From: a virus
Taxonomy: Duplodnaviria; Heunggongvirae; Uroviricota; Caudoviricetes
Direction: 5' to 3' (one strand)
Length of the DNA: 18,529 bases
Virus record (IMG/VR): IMGVR_UViG_3300042869_000717
Span: 78,208-96,736 of that record
Shown: positions 3,938 to 10,804 of the stretch, one piece after another
Position numbering within the stretch: the stretch's first letter is position 1
Layout: every line of letters begins with the position of its first letter
Notes under the pieces: model-generated
What the model was told of the DNA's origin: nothing
Seen by the model: the letters and a program-made list of their open reading frames with translations, nothing else
Database searches by the model: none
Translations under genes and position numbers: made by a program

Positions 3938-3983
3938 TTAATAAAAAAAAAATCCATCATATGATGGATTTTTTTTTTATTAA
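3938..3983. terminator. 46-bp perfect palindrome; likely intrinsic terminator of the tmRNA
   Basis: TTAATAAAAAAAAAATCCATCAT|ATGATGGATTTTTTTTTTATTAA; begins 2 nt beyond the tmRNA discriminator base and has A10/T10 tracts in its arms. Confidence 0.75.
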
Positions 3984-3985
3984 AG

Positions 3986-4395
3986 TGGAGATGCCGATTT
4001 CGAAATCGGGTGTTGTCCATCCTAAGTGTTTAGGTCTACACGTTTATTCAATTAATTCTCAACTGACAAATAAGAAGGTTTTAATTTTTCCATCATTACC
4101 TACAACTGTGGGAGGTTCACTTTAATAGGTAGACCCTCAAACGAGACCTTGACACTCTTCGGGTGGTATCACACCTTAAGATATTTCTGTTGCAAGGTAC
4201 ATATATCCGTCGACCCCAATGTGTGTTTGCTTACGCTACGTTCACAAGCTCATCTTGACGTACAAGACCTACTAGAGCCATTTTGTTTAAAATGTTGCCA
4301 TTTATAATTTTGTCATCCATAGATTTAAGTGATAGGAAACTTCTCACTACGTGCCCTAAATAAGTAGATATGTCAGTCAATTCCATTTCATCCCC
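3986..4395 (-). ncRNA. ssrA: tmRNA (transfer-messenger RNA)
   Basis: 5' GGGGATGAAATGGAATTGAC pairs with 3' CATCTCC-A, giving a 7-bp acceptor stem with G3.U70 and discriminator A (tRNA-Ala identity). A TTCGAA T-loop-like hairpin is present. TTTAGG/CCTAAA and CACGT/ACGTG pair as in helix 2. There is an internal tag ORF after ATAAAT|GGC. Confidence 0.93.
4231..4299 (-). other. tmRNA tag reading frame, (A)GNILNKMALVGLVRQDELVNVA*
   Basis: Resume codon GGC at 4299 inferred from the TATAAAT|GGCAAC context; 22 sense codons to TAA at 4231-4233. Confidence 0.75.
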
Positions 4396-5628: not shown

Positions 5629-6471
5629 ATGACAAACGATATATTATTACTAAAAGAAGTTCTTAGTGTTCCAACCGTAACTTATAAAGAAGACCTAATG
5701 GTTGAATTTTTACAGAATTGGTTGACCGAAAACAATATAGAACATTATGTTGATGAACACAAAAATGTTTATGCAACCAAACAAGAACTTGAAACACTTC
5801 CTGAGGACTTTTACTTCCCTTGTGTTATTGCACATACTGACACAGTCCACAGATTAGACAATATAATAGTTCATGAAGAACAATTACCTAATGCTCAAGG
5901 TGAGATTAAAGATTCGTTGAAAGCTTACAACTTACATGGATTACCAACCGGAATCGGTGGTGATGATAAATGTGGAGTATTTGCTTGTTTAAAATTACTA
6001 AAAGAATTACCAAATTTAAAAGCCACTTTCTTTGTATCTGAAGAAACCGGATGTCACGGTTCCAAAAAGGCTGACCCTGAATTCTTCACTAATGTTGGTT
6101 ATGGAATTCAATTTGACGCTCCGGAGAACTGGATGATTACCGAAAAATGTTTCAGTCAAGATTTATTTGATAGAGAGTCAGAATTCTTTGAAGTTTGTGA
6201 CCAAGTATTAACCGAAGGGATGCATAACGAAGATATGCAATACATGGTTCATCCATATACTGATGTTTATGCGTTGAGAAGTAAATTTAGTTTTTCTTGT
6301 ATCAACTTTTCAATTGGGTATTACGATTACCACACACCAAACGAATATGTGGTGATTGAGGATGTTTTCAAAGGGATTGAAATGGGAAGACAAATGATTG
6401 AAAAACTTGGGAATAAGTTACACTACAAAGAAGTAGTTGAGATTCCAAGATATAATCACAGATTCTTCTAA
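5629..6471 (+). CDS. Co-catalytic zinc peptidase, clan MH (M20/M28/M42-like)
   Basis: Metal-ligand motifs IAHTDTVH, GIGGDDKCG, VSEETG, QFD and the C-terminal YHTPNE. Confidence 0.88.
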   Translation: MTNDILLLKEVLSVPTVTYKEDLMVEFLQNWLTENNIEHYVDEHKNVYATKQELETLPEDFYFPCVIAHTDTVHRLDNIIVHEEQLPNAQGEIKDSLKAYNLHGLPTGIGGDDKCGVFACLKLLKELPNLKATFFVSEETGCHGSKKADPEFFTNVGYGIQFDAPENWMITEKCFSQDLFDRESEFFEVCDQVLTEGMHNEDMQYMVHPYTDVYALRSKFSFSCINFSIGYYDYHTPNEYVVIEDVFKGIEMGRQMIEKLGNKLHYKEVVEIPRYNHRFF

Positions 6472-6476
6472 AATAT

Positions 6477-6502
6477 AAAAGAGACCAAATGGTTTCTTTT
6501 TT
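6477..6502 (+). terminator. Intrinsic terminator after the peptidase
   Basis: AAAAGAGACC-AAAT-GGTTTCTTTT hairpin followed by a T run. Confidence 0.65.
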
Positions 6503-6510
6503 GTTTTAGG

Positions 6511-6520
6511 GTATTTATTA
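6511..6520 (+). promoter_or_regulatory. TATTTAT motif, putative late promoter
   Basis: GTATTTATTA 2 nt before ATG 6523 and just after a terminator, so the gene needs its own promoter. Confidence 0.55.
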
Positions 6521-6522
6521 AT

Positions 6523-6864
6523 ATGAAAATATTAATTAACGAAAATAGGGTTGATAGTCTAATCAACAAGTGGTTGGAAGATGAATATGGAGGGTTAAAA
6601 CACAAAGTTTCTGTTGATTATCCTGACCTTTATTATTTTATGAAAAATGGTGATGTTGTTATGGAATATTATGAAAAATACGGTAGACTCGGACTTGATG
6701 ATAGTATTATAACTTTCATTATGAAAATGTTTAATAAACCGTGGTTGGAAACTAAAGAGATGGTTGCAGTATGGTTCCAAAATTCATATAATTTAGATGT
6801 TGATATTGTCATAGAACCATTATCAACTACAAGGACTATTTGGAAGTCATATTCCGACAATTAA
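6523..6864 (+). CDS. Hypothetical phage protein (113 aa)
   Basis: ORF track; bounded by terminators; N-terminus MKILINE. Confidence 0.75.
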   Translation: MKILINENRVDSLINKWLEDEYGGLKHKVSVDYPDLYYFMKNGDVVMEYYEKYGRLGLDDSIITFIMKMFNKPWLETKEMVAVWFQNSYNLDVDIVIEPLSTTRTIWKSYSDN

Positions 6865-6870
6865 CCATAT

Positions 6871-6902: not shown

Positions 6903-8918
6903 TTATTTTCCTTTTTTCTGAATTGTGATGTCCTCACCCTTCATTTTGATTTGGTAGGATTTACCCTCAACCATTTTACCGGTTAATACTTCTTCGGATA
7001 ACAAATCCTCAATTTTGTCTTGGATTGCTCTCTTCAATGGTCTTGCACCATATACTTCATCGTATCCAATTTTAGATAGGTATTTAACAACCTCATCATC
7101 GTAGGTTACGGTGTATTTCATCTCACCAAGACGAGTCATTAATTTCTTTAACTCAATATCGGTGATTTTATCGATATCTTCAGGAGTTAATGAATTAAAG
7201 ACAATAGTGTCATCAATACGGTTAATGAACTCAGGAGAAAAGAAATTCTTCATCTCTTTCATCAAGATTTCTTTCTTAGCTTCTTCGTCGGCGTAAGAGT
7301 TATTAGAGAATCCAATACCAGTACCGAAGTCTTGTAATTTCTTAACACCTAAGTTAGATGTAAGGATGATTAAGGTATTCTTGAAGTTAATCTTTCTACC
7401 TAAACTATCGGTTACGTGTCCATCATCTAATATTTGAAGTAATACCGTGAAAACATCTTTGTGAGCTTTTTCAACCTCATCAAATAAGATTACAGAATAT
7501 GGTTTGTTTTTAACTTTCTCAGTTAATAAACCTCCTTCTTCGTAACCAACATATCCCGGAGGTGCTCCAACCAATTTAGAGATGGTGTGTTTCTCTTGGT
7601 ATTCTGACATATCCACACGGATAAGTGAATCTTCTGTTCCAAACATCTCTTTAGCTAATTGTTTGGCCAAGTGAGTTTTACCAACACCGGTTGAACCTAA
7701 GAAAATAAATGAACCAATAGGTCTGTTAGGGTCTTTAATACCTAAACGGTTTCTCTTGATTGATTTTGCAATCTTAACAACAGCAGCATCCTGACCAATC
7801 ACTTTACCCATGATTGATTTATCTAAATTCATCAACGCTTTGGAATCATCAGCATCCATTTTACTCACAGGGATTTTAGTCATACTTGACACAACTTGAT
7901 ATACGGTTTCAAGAACAATAGTTTGTTTCTCCAAATCCATTTGTTTTGCAAACTTATCTTTTTCCGCCTCAAGTTTAATCAATAACTTTTTCTCCTTATC
8001 TCTAAGTTGTGCTGCTTGTTCGTAGTTTTGTTTTTTAACCACTTCCATTTTTTCAATCTTAATCTCAGCGGCTTTCTTTTTTAATTCCTCAATAACATCA
8101 GGAACTTTAATCTCGGTTTGCATACGAGCACCAACCTCATCTAAGATGTCAAATGCTTTATCCGGGAACTCACGGTCGGTGATGTAACGGTCAGCCAACT
8201 TAACACAAGTTTCCACAACTTCGTCACTATACAACACTTTGTGGTATGATTCGTATTTATCACGAACATTCTTAAGGATTTCGATTGTTTCTTCAACTGT
8301 GGATGGCTCCACAATTACTTTTTGGAATCTTCTTTCCAAGGCTCCGTCTTTCTCAATGTTCTTACGGAACTCATCAAGAGTTGTCGCACCAATACATTGA
8401 ACCTCTCCACGGGCAAGTGCCGGTTTGAAGATGTTTGAACCATCCATTGAACCTGAAGAATTACCGGAACCAACCAATGTGTGAATCTCATCGATAAACA
8501 CAATGATATTTGGATTAGCACTAAGTTCCTCGATAATCACTTTCATTCTTTCCTCAAATTGTCCACGATACTTTGTACCAGCAACAACTGAAGTTAAATC
8601 AAGGTTCACGATTCTTTTGTCCACTAAGTTTCTTGGACATTCTCCACTCACAATTTTCATAGCCAAACCTTCAACCAATGCGGTTTTACCACATCCGGGT
8701 TCACCTATGATAATAGGGTTATTCTTTTTTCTACGAGAAAGGATTTGTGCGATTCTCAAAATCTCGGCATCTCTACCAATAACCGGGTCTAATTTACCCG
8801 CCTCAGCTAGTTTATTTAAATCTCTACTGAAGTTGTCTAATACAGGTGTGTTTGTATCCATAGCTTGTTTTTGTGCTTTGTTCCCTGATTTGTCGTTGTC
8901 GTCCATTAAGTCGTTCAT
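6903..8918 (-). CDS. clpC: ClpC-type AAA+ unfoldase lacking the N-terminal Clp-repeat domain
   Basis: Two AAA+ modules (GEPGCGKT/FIDEIH and GSTGVGKT/LFDEVEKAH), pore loops KYRG and GYVG, a short UVR-type middle domain (KQNYEQAAQLRD) and the ClpP-docking loop GIGF (7308-7319). ATG 8918 preferred over the track's TTG 8951. Confidence 0.9.
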   Translation of the reverse strand: MNDLMDDNDKSGNKAQKQAMDTNTPVLDNFSRDLNKLAEAGKLDPVIGRDAEILRIAQILSRRKKNNPIIIGEPGCGKTALVEGLAMKIVSGECPRNLVDKRIVNLDLTSVVAGTKYRGQFEERMKVIIEELSANPNIIVFIDEIHTLVGSGNSSGSMDGSNIFKPALARGEVQCIGATTLDEFRKNIEKDGALERRFQKVIVEPSTVEETIEILKNVRDKYESYHKVLYSDEVVETCVKLADRYITDREFPDKAFDILDEVGARMQTEIKVPDVIEELKKKAAEIKIEKMEVVKKQNYEQAAQLRDKEKKLLIKLEAEKDKFAKQMDLEKQTIVLETVYQVVSSMTKIPVSKMDADDSKALMNLDKSIMGKVIGQDAAVVKIAKSIKRNRLGIKDPNRPIGSFIFLGSTGVGKTHLAKQLAKEMFGTEDSLIRVDMSEYQEKHTISKLVGAPPGYVGYEEGGLLTEKVKNKPYSVILFDEVEKAHKDVFTVLLQILDDGHVTDSLGRKINFKNTLIILTSNLGVKKLQDFGTGIGFSNNSYADEEAKKEILMKEMKNFFSPEFINRIDDTIVFNSLTPEDIDKITDIELKKLMTRLGEMKYTVTYDDEVVKYLSKIGYDEVYGARPLKRAIQDKIEDLLSEEVLTGKMVEGKSYQIKMKGEDITIQKKGK

Positions 8919-8975
8919 AGTTTCTAATTTTATTTTACAAAGGTGTATCAAATTTTATTCTTATCCTAATTTTTA

Positions 8976-9017
8976 GACAAATTGTCAGTAAGTTTTTTTT
9001 AACCTGACATATTGACA
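8976..9017. promoter_or_regulatory. Operator-like TGACA/TGTCA repeats in the divergent clpC/UVR intergenic region
   Basis: GACAA-A-TTGTC (8976-8986), TGTCAG-N15-CTGACA (8983-9009) and the direct repeat TGACATA x2 (9005, 9013). Confidence 0.45.
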
Positions 9018-9040
9018 TATTTTTTGGTTTGGTATATTAT
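9012..9040 (+). promoter_or_regulatory. Sigma70-like promoter upstream of the UVR gene
   Basis: TTGACA (9012-9017), N17, TATTAT (9035-9040). Could be chance in AT-rich DNA. Confidence 0.4.
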
Positions 9041-9050
9041 TTGAATAATA

Positions 9051-9058
9051 CAAAGGTA
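9051..9058 (-). promoter_or_regulatory. Bacteroidota-type -7 element oriented toward clpC
   Basis: TACCTTTG on the minus strand, the same octamer as in the peptidase promoter; no exact -33. Confidence 0.5.
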
Positions 9059-9088
9059 TAAAATAAATTTGAATTAAAAAATAAAATT

Positions 9089-9469
9089 ATGTTTGGAAAC
9101 AGAAAAAATTTTAATGACATTTTGAGAGAATTTGATAATATGTTCTCTCAGTTTGATTCTTCTCAGTTAGGGGAATGGAAATCAGAAACAAGAGTATCTG
9201 AAGATGGTACGATAAAAGTGACTTCATTCTATAGAAGTTCAGAACCAAAAACACCTAAAGGTAGTAATGGTTTAAAACGACAACTTGAGTTGGCAATCGA
9301 AAATGAAGACTTTGAGAAAGCGGTTGAGATTAGAGACCAAATCAGAAAAATGGAAACTAATCAAGAATCTATCTCTAAACTTGAAGAAGAATTAAAACAA
9401 TCAATTAAAGACCATAACTTTGAACGGTCAATTGAAATTCGTGATGAATTAAAAAAATTAAAACTTTAA
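9089..9469 (+). CDS. Tandem UVR (UvrB/UvrC motif) protein, McsA-like C-terminus; candidate Clp adaptor
   Basis: Two UVR repeats, LKRQLELAIENEDFEKAVEIRDQI and LEEELKQSIKDHNFERSIEIRDEL. No Cys, so no McsA zinc fingers. Confidence 0.8.
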   Translation: MFGNRKNFNDILREFDNMFSQFDSSQLGEWKSETRVSEDGTIKVTSFYRSSEPKTPKGSNGLKRQLELAIENEDFEKAVEIRDQIRKMETNQESISKLEEELKQSIKDHNFERSIEIRDELKKLKL

Positions 9470-9473
9470 AATC

Positions 9474-9499
9474 AAACCCCACCCTCACCGGTGGGGTTT
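9474..9499 (+). terminator. Intrinsic terminator after the UVR gene
   Basis: AAACCCCACC-CTCACC-GGTGGGGTTT, perfect 10-bp stem. Confidence 0.75.
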
Positions 9500-9517
9500 C
9501 TTATTCTAATATACACC

Positions 9518-9527
9518 ATATTTATTA
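9518..9527 (+). promoter_or_regulatory. TATTTAT motif, putative late promoter
   Basis: ATATTTATTA 2 nt before ATG 9530, just after a terminator. Confidence 0.55.
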
Positions 9528-9529
9528 AT

Positions 9530-9862
9530 ATGAAACCATTTGAAAAATTTTTAAATAGTAGCGTTGGTTTACAACGATTAAGTGAATTATATCTTGAAAT
9601 TAGACAATATTTTCAATCTCAAGGATGGAGTGAAAAAGATTTAGAAAAACCACCGTATTACGAAAATCGTTTAATGAAATTATATCATAATTTTGGTGAT
9701 GAACAAAAAGCTTTATTTCAACAGGTAAAAGACTTAGGTTTTGATGTAGATTGGAATGACTTCACTAGTTATTTAACACCTATATTACAAAACATAAACG
9801 AACTAACACCACTAAGCGATGGGGATTACGAGAGAGGAAATCAAGGGGACGAAGATTATTAA
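9530..9862 (+). CDS. Hypothetical protein (110 aa)
   Basis: Start reassigned from GTG 9491 (inside the terminator) to ATG 9530 (MKPFEKFLNSS); overlaps the KTSC gene by 44 nt. Confidence 0.75.
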   Translation: MKPFEKFLNSSVGLQRLSELYLEIRQYFQSQGWSEKDLEKPPYYENRLMKLYHNFGDEQKALFQQVKDLGFDVDWNDFTSYLTPILQNINELTPLSDGDYERGNQGDEDY

Positions 9863-10061
9863 TGAAATTAAATCGTCAAACATTAAAAGAACAGAATACG
9901 ATACTGAAACAAAAAAATTAGTTGTTGAATTTAACAATGGATTGAAGTATGAGTATGATGAAGTTCCACACCAAACATACACTAAATTTAGGGCTGCAGA
10001 ATCCCAAGGAAAATTTTTTGTAACAGAAATATCAAAAGCCTACAAGTATAAGAAAGCGTAG
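9819..10061 (+). CDS. KTSC domain protein
   Basis: IKSSNIKRTEYD...LVVEFNNGLKYEYDEVP...FRAAESQGKFF...I...Y matches the KTSC pattern (SS.I...YD...L.V.F..G..Y.Y..VP......A.S.G.YF). Confidence 0.88.
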   Translation: MGITREEIKGTKIINEIKSSNIKRTEYDTETKKLVVEFNNGLKYEYDEVPHQTYTKFRAAESQGKFFVTEISKAYKYKKA

Positions 10062-10072: not shown

Positions 10073-10804
10073 ATGAGTAAATTCCAACAAATACTTAATA
10101 GTTTTTCTATTAAAGAAACCCTTAACCCAAAAGTATGGGAAAATCCGGATAACCCGAAGAAGGCGACTATGATTCCTAAGGTTAAAGAAGCCCTTGAGCG
10201 TATCGCCGAAGAGTTTGTAGATTATTTGGGTGATAATGTATTTGTTGAAGATGTCGTTCTAACCGGTTCATTATCAAATTTTAATTGGTCTGAATTTTCA
10301 GATTTTGATTTACATGTTATTGTGGATATGGATGAATACGGAGACGAGGATGAATTATACAAAGAACTTTTCAATTTAAAAAAACAACTTTTTAATATAA
10401 ATCATAACATTAAAATCTTTGGTTATGATGTGGAATTATATGCTCAAGACGCCGAAGAACCCCATATTAGTTCAGGAGTATACTCTATTATGAATAATGA
10501 ATGGATTAATGTTCCAAAAAAAACAAATTTAGAAATAAATAAAAAAGCTCTTGAAGATAAAATCAAAAATTGGACTGAGAAAATTGATACTTCCGTTGAG
10601 AATGGGGACATTAAAATTCTTGAATCAATTAAAGATAAATTAAAAAAATATCGTCAATCAGGATTGGATGATGGCGGAGAACTATCTTACGAAAATTTAG
10701 TGTTTAAATACCTAAGAAGGTCAGGACATGTTAAAAAATTATTCGATTCGATTAATAAAGGGACAGATAAAAAACTATCTATTGAAAGAAAAATTGAGGA
10801 TTAG
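10073..10804 (+). CDS. DNA polymerase beta-superfamily nucleotidyltransferase
   Basis: hGS-x9-DhDh signature (VLTGSLSNFNWSEFSDFDLHVIV) and a third acidic residue in YDVELY. Substrate unknown. Confidence 0.85.
   Translation: MSKFQQILNSFSIKETLNPKVWENPDNPKKATMIPKVKEALERIAEEFVDYLGDNVFVEDVVLTGSLSNFNWSEFSDFDLHVIVDMDEYGDEDELYKELFNLKKQLFNINHNIKIFGYDVELYAQDAEEPHISSGVYSIMNNEWINVPKKTNLEINKKALEDKIKNWTEKIDTSVENGDIKILESIKDKLKKYRQSGLDDGGELSYENLVFKYLRRSGHVKKLFDSINKGTDKKLSIERKIED

Follow-up and report, generated by a model that had tools for sequence, protein, structure and literature searches.

ClpC unfoldases are normally inactive when alone and are switched on by MecA, by McsB and phospho-arginine, or by ClpS, via their N-terminal domain (N-domain) and their middle domain. 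Phospho-arginine is read by the N-domain, and McsA is the activator of the protein-arginine kinase McsB. Here we describe a stretch of 18,529 nucleotides of viral DNA (the window; positions 78,208 to 96,736 of the IMG/VR record IMGVR_UViG_3300042869_000717, Caudoviricetes), in which a clpC-like gene devoid of the N-domain faces a small gene for a protein with two UVR hairpins (the twin-UVR gene), and we consider what the twin-UVR protein may do for the phage ClpC. CLPF, a UVR protein of plastids, works together with ClpS1 and with the N-domain of ClpC, the very domain that is absent from the phage ClpC.

The activity of ClpC is switched at the UVR motif in its middle domain, where F436 lies and MecA makes contact, and Mycobacterium tuberculosis ClpC1 without the N-terminal domain still unfolds SsrA-tagged substrate (PMC6274998). 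A loose precedent for UVR proteins in contact with ClpC comes from plastids, where CLPC1 traps were enriched in UVR-domain proteins (PMC8889267). CLPF, UVR2-4 and EXE1/2 resemble the twin-UVR protein in that the UVR motif is their recognisable feature and in their association with a ClpC chaperone, and differ from it in being YccV or DUF151 fusions with a single UVR (PMC8889267). Furthermore, Gp53 of phage SPO1, an adaptor-like modulator compared here by description only, is likewise a small phage protein acting on ClpC; its target, however, is the ClpC of the host (PMC6873191), whereas the present phage brings its own ClpC and ClpP.

The phage ClpC, its protease and its setting

The comparison covered 80 IMG/VR loci whose ClpC is 78-97% identical to that of the window, with the upstream flank present in 76 of them; individual loci carry L-numbers, G000 is the window's own record, and G001 and G002 are the two complete relatives. 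Sequence comparison confirms the gene as coding for an Hsp100 protein of the ClpC type without the N-terminal domain. Its best match among solved structures is Staphylococcus aureus ClpC (742 bits, phmmer), of which residues 144-800 align in one stretch with residues 19-674 of the translation P0001, which is numbered by the open reading frame (ORF) and is converted to the numbering of the 671-residue protein by subtracting 11. Because the alignment begins at residue 144, residues 1-143 of S. aureus ClpC, which make up the N-domain, are without a phage counterpart. The ORF list has the gene at 6903-8951 (-) from a TTG, but in all 73 relatives of full length the first codon is the ATG that lies at 8918 in the window (MNDLMDD...). 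Pfam recognises AAA, AAA_lid_9, AAA_2 and ClpB_D2-small in the protein, with Clp_N missing, and the profile of PHROG 4871 ('ATP-dependent protease') is matched from position 155 of 764 only.

A sequence-only reading of the window had counted about 25 residues before the first AAA+ module and taken the Clp repeat domain to be absent, with the UVR-type middle domain and the GIGF loop retained. This description holds: about 23 residues stand before the linker 'TPVLDNFSRDL', and both retained elements are found by alignment with S. aureus ClpC. The same reading had envisaged that an N-domain might be encoded elsewhere, or that the truncation might be peculiar to this genome. A search for Clp_N (PF02861) found none in the 96.7-kb record, the two complete relatives and two partial ones, while control genomes gave matches, and every relative has the truncation, with a short tail in the N-domain's place. 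Residues 1-10 of this tail (8889-8918 (-)) are nearly invariant among the relatives and residues 11-23 are variable; the near-invariance of these first ten residues could mean that the peptide itself has a function or that the RNA is under constraint where the gene begins.

Both AAA+ rings have intact Walker A and B motifs and pore loops. The middle domain aligns with that of S. aureus ClpC with one single-residue gap, and its UVR core N-Y-E-Q-A-A-Q-L-R-D (7998-8027) carries a tyrosine at the position of F436. The G-I-G-F of the putative ClpP-docking loop corresponds to residues 534-537, with its consensus conserved in our alignment A3. Overall, the protein is 50-54% identical to Firmicutes ClpC (Bacillus subtilis and S. 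aureus; PDB 6em8, 3j3s) over D1, middle domain and D2, and shares with it the short UVR-type middle domain, in which the F436 position is aromatic, and a ClpP loop at the corresponding place. It differs in being phage-encoded and in lacking Clp_N, and thus the known binding sites for MecA, McsB/phospho-arginine and ClpS. McsB (PF00217) was found neither in the window's record nor in the two complete relatives, and neither ClpS nor Hsp70 in the two complete relatives; no search for MecA was made. The disaggregase ClpB, which has a long middle domain of four helices and no ClpP loop, was considered as an identity for the protein and ruled out, since ClpB and Hsp104 align in two pieces split at the middle domain and an IGF loop is present; the NCBIfam score for ClpB is 835, under the cut-off of 1232.

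The window forms the final 18.5 kb of its record, which CheckV puts at 32% completeness. Of the complete genomes among the close relatives, one measures 326 kb and another, which carries direct terminal repeats, 321 kb, and near-identical DNA for 6903-9520 occurs in at least 17 lake-water metagenome runs from 2020-2024 (likely source sample excluded). The window's family is one of T4-related jumbo phages of about 320 kb from lake water, with their own Clp machinery aboard. Megablast of the region against GenBank phages gave 0 matches, and a cluster look-up of the nearest cellular ClpCs returned almost no taxonomy. RNA-library (metatranscriptome) contigs, covering parts of the stretch only, match clpC in part (run X19) and the UVR gene in part (run X21) with full identity, a weak sign of expression, as such libraries can carry DNA.

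The window's record and both complete relatives encode one ClpP each, about 20-30 kb from clpC and not in an operon with it (in the record at G000:C1:54865-55392; L001:1420-2163 -). This protein matches PF00574 with an E-value of 6e-52, keeps the Ser-His-Asp triad in alignment with 1y7o (Streptococcus pneumoniae ClpP) and scores 227 bits with the cellular ClpP model versus 60 bits with the head-maturation model; judged by these scores, it is a ClpP of the cellular type and not a prohead protease. A T4-type S77 prohead protease, separate from ClpP, is present in both complete relatives. The phage ClpP is longer than the solved ClpPs, with an N-terminal extension of about 31 residues, which the best NCBIfam model (PRK14514) spans almost entirely (from residue 5), and a C-terminal one of about 25.

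The facing slot and its two occupants

The clpC and twin-UVR genes stand head-to-head across 170 bp. That such a pairing is conserved, which the sequence-only reading had left to be checked, is borne out in both directions: the divergent slot holds a twin-UVR gene in 48 of the 76 ClpC loci with upstream flank, and clpC is divergent and adjacent at 75 of the 76 twin-UVR loci that have enough flank to be scored. The remaining 28 ClpC loci have, in identical position and orientation, a gene of about 130 codons for a small heat-shock protein of the Hsp20/alpha-crystallin family (PF00011, E-values 7e-13 and 1e-11), whose C-terminus ends in ...R-I-S-L-L or ...R-I-N-L-L, an I-x-I/L motif; a third type of occupant does not occur. 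At these Hsp20-type loci ClpC equally lacks the N-domain and has the same tail, middle domain and IGF loop.

Hsp20 and twin-UVR are mutually exclusive. The complete genome of the UVR type has Hsp20 nowhere, and in the complete genome of the Hsp20 type PF02151 is found above the Pfam threshold inside clpC only. At the DNA level, blastn against the Hsp20-type loci L010, L013 and L063 (with the UVR-type loci L009 and L037 for comparison) follows homology through clpC to 9021, loses it, and finds it again at 9519. The exchange is a clean swap of a one-gene cassette of about 500 bp. When the ClpC tree is rooted on distant homologues, the UVR-type loci fall within a set of which the Hsp20-type loci form the base, with 4-5 switches and weak support; Hsp20 was probably the ancestral occupant, and a single origin is possible. 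A descent of the twin-UVR protein from a small heat-shock protein by remodelling, raised by a likeness in an N-terminal 'F-x-D-x-F' region and an 'E-D-G-x-x-x-V' strand, was rejected on an hhalign probability of 0.6% over 8 columns.

The arrangement with Hsp20 is reminiscent of the small heat-shock proteins that work with Hsp100 disaggregases, such as IbpA/B with ClpB-DnaK, in that an Hsp20 gene faces an Hsp100 gene in the 28 sister loci. It differs in that the phage partner is of the ClpC type with a ClpP loop and that an Hsp70 gene is missing, and the twin-UVR protein differs further in having no alpha-crystallin domain.

Both locus types have kept 2-3 copies of TGACA-N3-TGTCA palindromes (about 8975-8988 and 9001-9021) between the divergent genes, which overlap the -35 element of a promoter-like site. 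The palindromes are likely an operator, and their conservation is compatible with one that both locus types share.

The twin-UVR protein itself has two stretches, at residues 62-89 and 95-126, that match the Pfam UVR family (PF02151, E 1.1e-14), and thus answers to what the sequence-only reading had seen, two UVR hairpins and no zinc fingers. The AlphaFold2 model, of low confidence (mean predicted local distance difference test score, pLDDT, 64), of which the secondary structure alone was used, predicts a helix at residues 8-22, a beta-hairpin at 30-49 and three further helices, with a long central helix common to both UVR hairpins, which would be of helix-turn-helix form. Foldseek with this model against the PDB returned nothing at E <= 0.001. 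The hairpin signature [D/N]-F-E-x-[A/S]-[V/I]-x-[I/L]-R-D is also that of the ClpC middle domain. The protein is 40-85% identical across loci versus 78-97% for ClpC, and therefore evolves much faster.

According to ESM Atlas clusters the twin-UVR family is viral-only, and a tblastn search of 185,000 prokaryote genomes gave motif-level matches only (n=71). In 48 of the 71 a clpC-like gene lies about 1.6-1.9 kb downstream, which is the spacing of an mcsA-mcsB-clpC operon, and L190, the one of the 48 that was inspected, has this operon. Because most cellular matches show this spacing, the UVR hairpins look McsA-derived. The best NCBIfam match is likewise to the C-terminal UVR of McsA, at 41 bits versus a family cut-off of 210, next to weak matches to the C-terminal regions of UvrB and UvrC. 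McsA is thus the closest sequence relative of the hairpins, and both proteins are small and encoded beside clpC. That the twin-UVR protein is McsA itself is ruled out, as a McsA combines a single UVR with four zinc-binding CxxC motifs in its N-terminal half, whereas the phage protein has no cysteine and two UVRs and its genome is free of McsB. What the UVR domain of McsA does was not the subject of any paper found in literature searches.

Possible roles of the twin-UVR protein

The reading we prefer, tentatively and at somewhat under an even chance when taken as a whole, is that the product of the slot gene is a small helper protein for the phage ClpC, with the twin-UVR protein taking the job that the small heat-shock protein has in sister phages. 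ClpC without the N-domain and the phage ClpP would constitute the phage's own Clp machine. The two hairpins may dock on one or two ClpC middle domains, by analogy with the contacts between middle domains in the resting state and with MecA on F436, and this docking would keep the hexamer in, or switch it into, its active form, while the variable N-terminal module of 50 residues (helix and beta-hairpin) could bind client or aggregated proteins. The motor itself would be independent of the twin-UVR partner and would also work beside Hsp20 or in the absence of both. That the twin-UVR protein is functionally linked to the phage ClpC is the best reading because its gene strictly adjoins clpC, because the one other protein encoded in the slot belongs to proteostasis, because the hairpins appear McsA-like in origin, and because their signature matches the middle-domain motif, a known ClpC switch.

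In the sequence-only reading, the UVR protein might dock on the middle domain as an activator or adaptor that replaces control by the N-domain, or might engage host ClpC too. The conserved pairing agrees with part of this proposal; the same ClpC, however, stands beside Hsp20 in the 28 loci, and the ClpCs of other huge phages that lack the N-domain stand beside neither protein. Because such a ClpC occurs in these other companies, the UVR protein cannot be an obligatory stand-in for control by the N-domain and is at most an optional, exchangeable partner of ClpC.

Several observations weigh against a helper in the slot. The twin-UVR and Hsp20 families have no detectable homology, so that position is what the claim of a shared job goes by. 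The other side of clpC is variable too, and the neighbourhood may simply be prone to recombination: the stretch 6434-6867 between the 3' end of clpC and the M20-like peptidase gene (with an ORF at 6523-6864 +, 113 amino acids, no family) is unconserved, and relatives have 0.7-1.8 kb of unrelated DNA there. Among ClpC substitutions associated with locus type, the middle domain is slightly over-represented (7 of 22 columns of high mutual information versus about 3 expected), an enrichment that is confounded by phylogeny and that reaches beyond the middle domain as well. In addition, clpP is unlinked to clpC in the family, so that coupling to ClpP is read from the IGF loop. A predicted complex between the twin-UVR protein (alignment A1) and residues 1-350 of ClpC (alignment A3) scored 0.19 against a mark of 0.32, was run free of controls, and is evidence for neither side.

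The recombination argument can be taken further, to a slot that is a hot spot for unrelated accessory genes and a UVR motif shared by the two proteins incidentally. The cleanness of the cassette swap, the 4-5 switches needed by the tree, the absence of homology between the two families and the variable DNA on the 3' side of clpC would all fit. We nevertheless consider it unlikely, since two types of occupant only are found in 76 loci, both of them proteostasis families, since the viral-only twin-UVR family sits at the clpC slot in 75 of 76 scorable loci, and since the palindromes conserved across both locus types suggest a shared regulation. Equally doubtful is a target in the host, either the middle domain of the host ClpC, which would be xenogeneic modulation as by SPO1 Gp53, or, as a decoy that blocks excision repair, the interface of UvrB and UvrC. 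Phage proteins that hijack host ClpC exist (PMC6873191), PF02151 is the interaction motif of UvrB and UvrC, to whose C-terminal regions NCBIfam gives the weak matches mentioned above, and what looks like a strong sigma-70 promoter precedes the twin-UVR gene; yet the phage's own clpC adjoins in 75 of 76 loci, McsA-type proteins and not UvrB or UvrC give the best matches to the motif, and the protein that takes the slot elsewhere is a chaperone.

Two further possibilities keep the phage ClpC as the partner and assign the pair a different task. The twin-UVR protein could be a brake, which cross-links the middle domains of neighbouring subunits or hexamers and holds an inactive store of ClpC until clients accumulate. 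Head-to-head contacts between middle domains via the UVR motif do stabilise the inactive resting state of ClpC (PMC6274998), two such motifs in one protein, joined in the model by one long helix, would suit a cross-linker, and ClpC without the N-domain has no other known control points; as sister phages have a pro-chaperone small heat-shock protein in the slot, which a helper fits better, we regard a brake as quite improbable. Least probable by a little is a ClpP-independent disaggregase or remodeller, for example in virion assembly, which works with Hsp20 or the UVR protein while the phage ClpP serves another ATPase. An Hsp20 partner is typical of disaggregation systems, clpP lies about 20-30 kb off and not in an operon with clpC, and AAA+ chaperones of jumbo phages have been proposed to aid assembly (PMC7824862). 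Against such a remodeller speak the IGF-type loop, conserved in the family and in other phage ClpCs lacking the N-domain, another phage-like contig with clpP directly upstream of such a clpC, and the middle domain, which is of the short ClpC type and not of the long ClpB type, as the two-piece alignment of ClpB indicates.

Neighbouring genes, distant relatives and meaning for jumbo phages

The features of the window that bear on clpC and its neighbours are collected in Table 1.

Table 1. Features of the clpC region in window coordinates, with the strand and the basis of each assignment.
Feature	Position	Strand	Basis or remark
Phage transfer-messenger RNA (tmRNA; Rfam RF00023), on the strand of clpC	3983..4395	-	Rfam, 50.6 bits
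tmRNA tag ORF, 22 codons	4231-4299	-	tag ends V-N-V-A
M20/M42-like peptidase gene, between tmRNA and clpC	5629..6471	+	Pfam, PHROG, NCBIfam
clpC-like gene, 671 amino acids plus stop; predicted class I Hsp100 unfoldase without Clp_N	6903..8918	-	alignment, Pfam, start of relatives
ClpP-docking loop G-T-G-I-G-F-S (putative)	7305..7325	-	aligned to S. aureus ClpC loop ('AGFGG')
D2 motifs: Walker A GSTGVGKT, pore loop GAPPGYVGY, Walker B VILFDEVEKAH	7461..7697	-	alignment
Short ClpC-type middle domain	7941..8105	-	alignment, PF02151 match inside clpC
D1 Walker B	8481-8504	-	alignment, motif location
D1 pore loop KYRGQFEER	8547-8573	-	alignment, motif location
D1 Walker A GEPGCGKT	8682..8705	-	alignment, motif location
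N-terminal tail, 23 residues, M-N-D-L-M-D-D-D-D-K then basic stretch, at the place of the N-domain	8850..8918	-	alignment of relatives
Divergent intergenic region with palindromes and promoter-like site	8919..9088		sequence, alignment A4
Sigma-70-like site TTGACA-17-TATTAT	9012-9040	+	sequence; -35 overlapped by palindromes
Exchangeable cassette, no DNA homology to Hsp20-type relatives, both flanks homologous	9022..9518		blastn
Twin-UVR gene, 126 amino acids, no Cys	9089..9469	+	ORF, Pfam, model
UVR hairpin 1	9272-9355	+	Pfam, model
UVR hairpin 2	9371-9466	+	Pfam, model
Terminator-like hairpin after twin-UVR gene	9474..9499	+	sequence

Beyond the slot gene, a KTSC-domain protein is encoded at 9819-10061 (+), by a gene conserved in both locus types, followed by a nucleotidyltransferase-like protein (PHROG 36119) at 10073-10804 (+). 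On the other side, 2.5 kb past the 3' end of clpC, lies the tmRNA, which exceeds the Rfam gathering score of 47 by a few bits and which ARAGORN does not report. We accept the Rfam assignment because seven relatives score 73-91 bits. The tmRNA is found at the same place downstream of clpC in 8 of the 13 relatives tested, where the tags are conserved, 21-22 residues long (G-N-T-F-A-K-M-A-A-L-G-L...V-V-x-A), and end in V-V-x-A or V-V-T-I. The Hsp20-type locus L077 has, downstream of clpC at 8753-8969, a tRNA together with a group I intron (72.5 bits with Rfam RF00028) at the site where others have the tmRNA.

A pathway made of the phage tmRNA, ClpC without the N-domain and ClpP is conceivable, given the unfolding of SsrA-tagged substrate by M. 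tuberculosis ClpC1 without its N-terminal domain. A specific form of it, which we think rather unlikely, is a self-contained route in which the tmRNA would add the phage's own tag to products of stalled translation, and this tag would be read directly by the pore or D1 of this ClpC, as SsrA is by such a ClpC1, and the products fed to the phage ClpP, with the slot providing a cofactor that holds clients and whose UVR version docks on the middle domain. Should this be true, the cofactor of that one lineage would be a type of ClpC partner not described before, consisting of UVR hairpins and nothing else.

Loss of the N-domain extends beyond the family. Among the best 150 cluster representatives at 50% identity, about 10 lack it, and two uncultured huge phages, of 635 kb and 484 kb, have more distant ClpCs of this kind that carry an IGF-type loop; in such huge phages outside the family, clpC has neither a twin-UVR nor an Hsp20 neighbour. 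The phage-like ENA contig mentioned above (L178:2782-6022) has clpP (223 amino acids) immediately upstream of a clpC without the N-domain (673 amino acids), in surroundings of many small unannotated genes and a DnaB helicase. In addition, a metagenome-assembled genome of Spirochaetia (L176:2474-6031) encodes a ClpC without the N-domain (676 amino acids, with the short tail M-F-K-E-M-E...) in a canonical mcsA-mcsB-clpC operon, in which an mcsA with four CxxC and one UVR, together with mcsB, directly precedes clpC; this arrangement is odd, as the reader of phospho-arginine is the ClpC N-domain. Literature searches found no paper on phage ClpC without the N-domain.

What appears to be new here, and on sequence grounds plausible, is a phage-borne ClpC-ClpP system lacking the N-domain whose small partner is exchangeable, being either Hsp20 or a viral-only twin-UVR protein. 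With about 250 IMG/VR loci, the small, viral-only twin-UVR family is nominated as a candidate ligand of the ClpC middle domain. A ClpC that lacks the N-domain by nature, is widespread and shows strong conservation offers a ready-made test of what the middle domain alone can do and of how the motor is targeted, and the exchange of one gene, Hsp20 or twin-UVR, at one position amounts to a natural experiment. With ClpP and a tmRNA of unusual tag alongside, the locus suggests that some jumbo phages bring a complete module for quality control and degradation, instead of hijacking that of the host.

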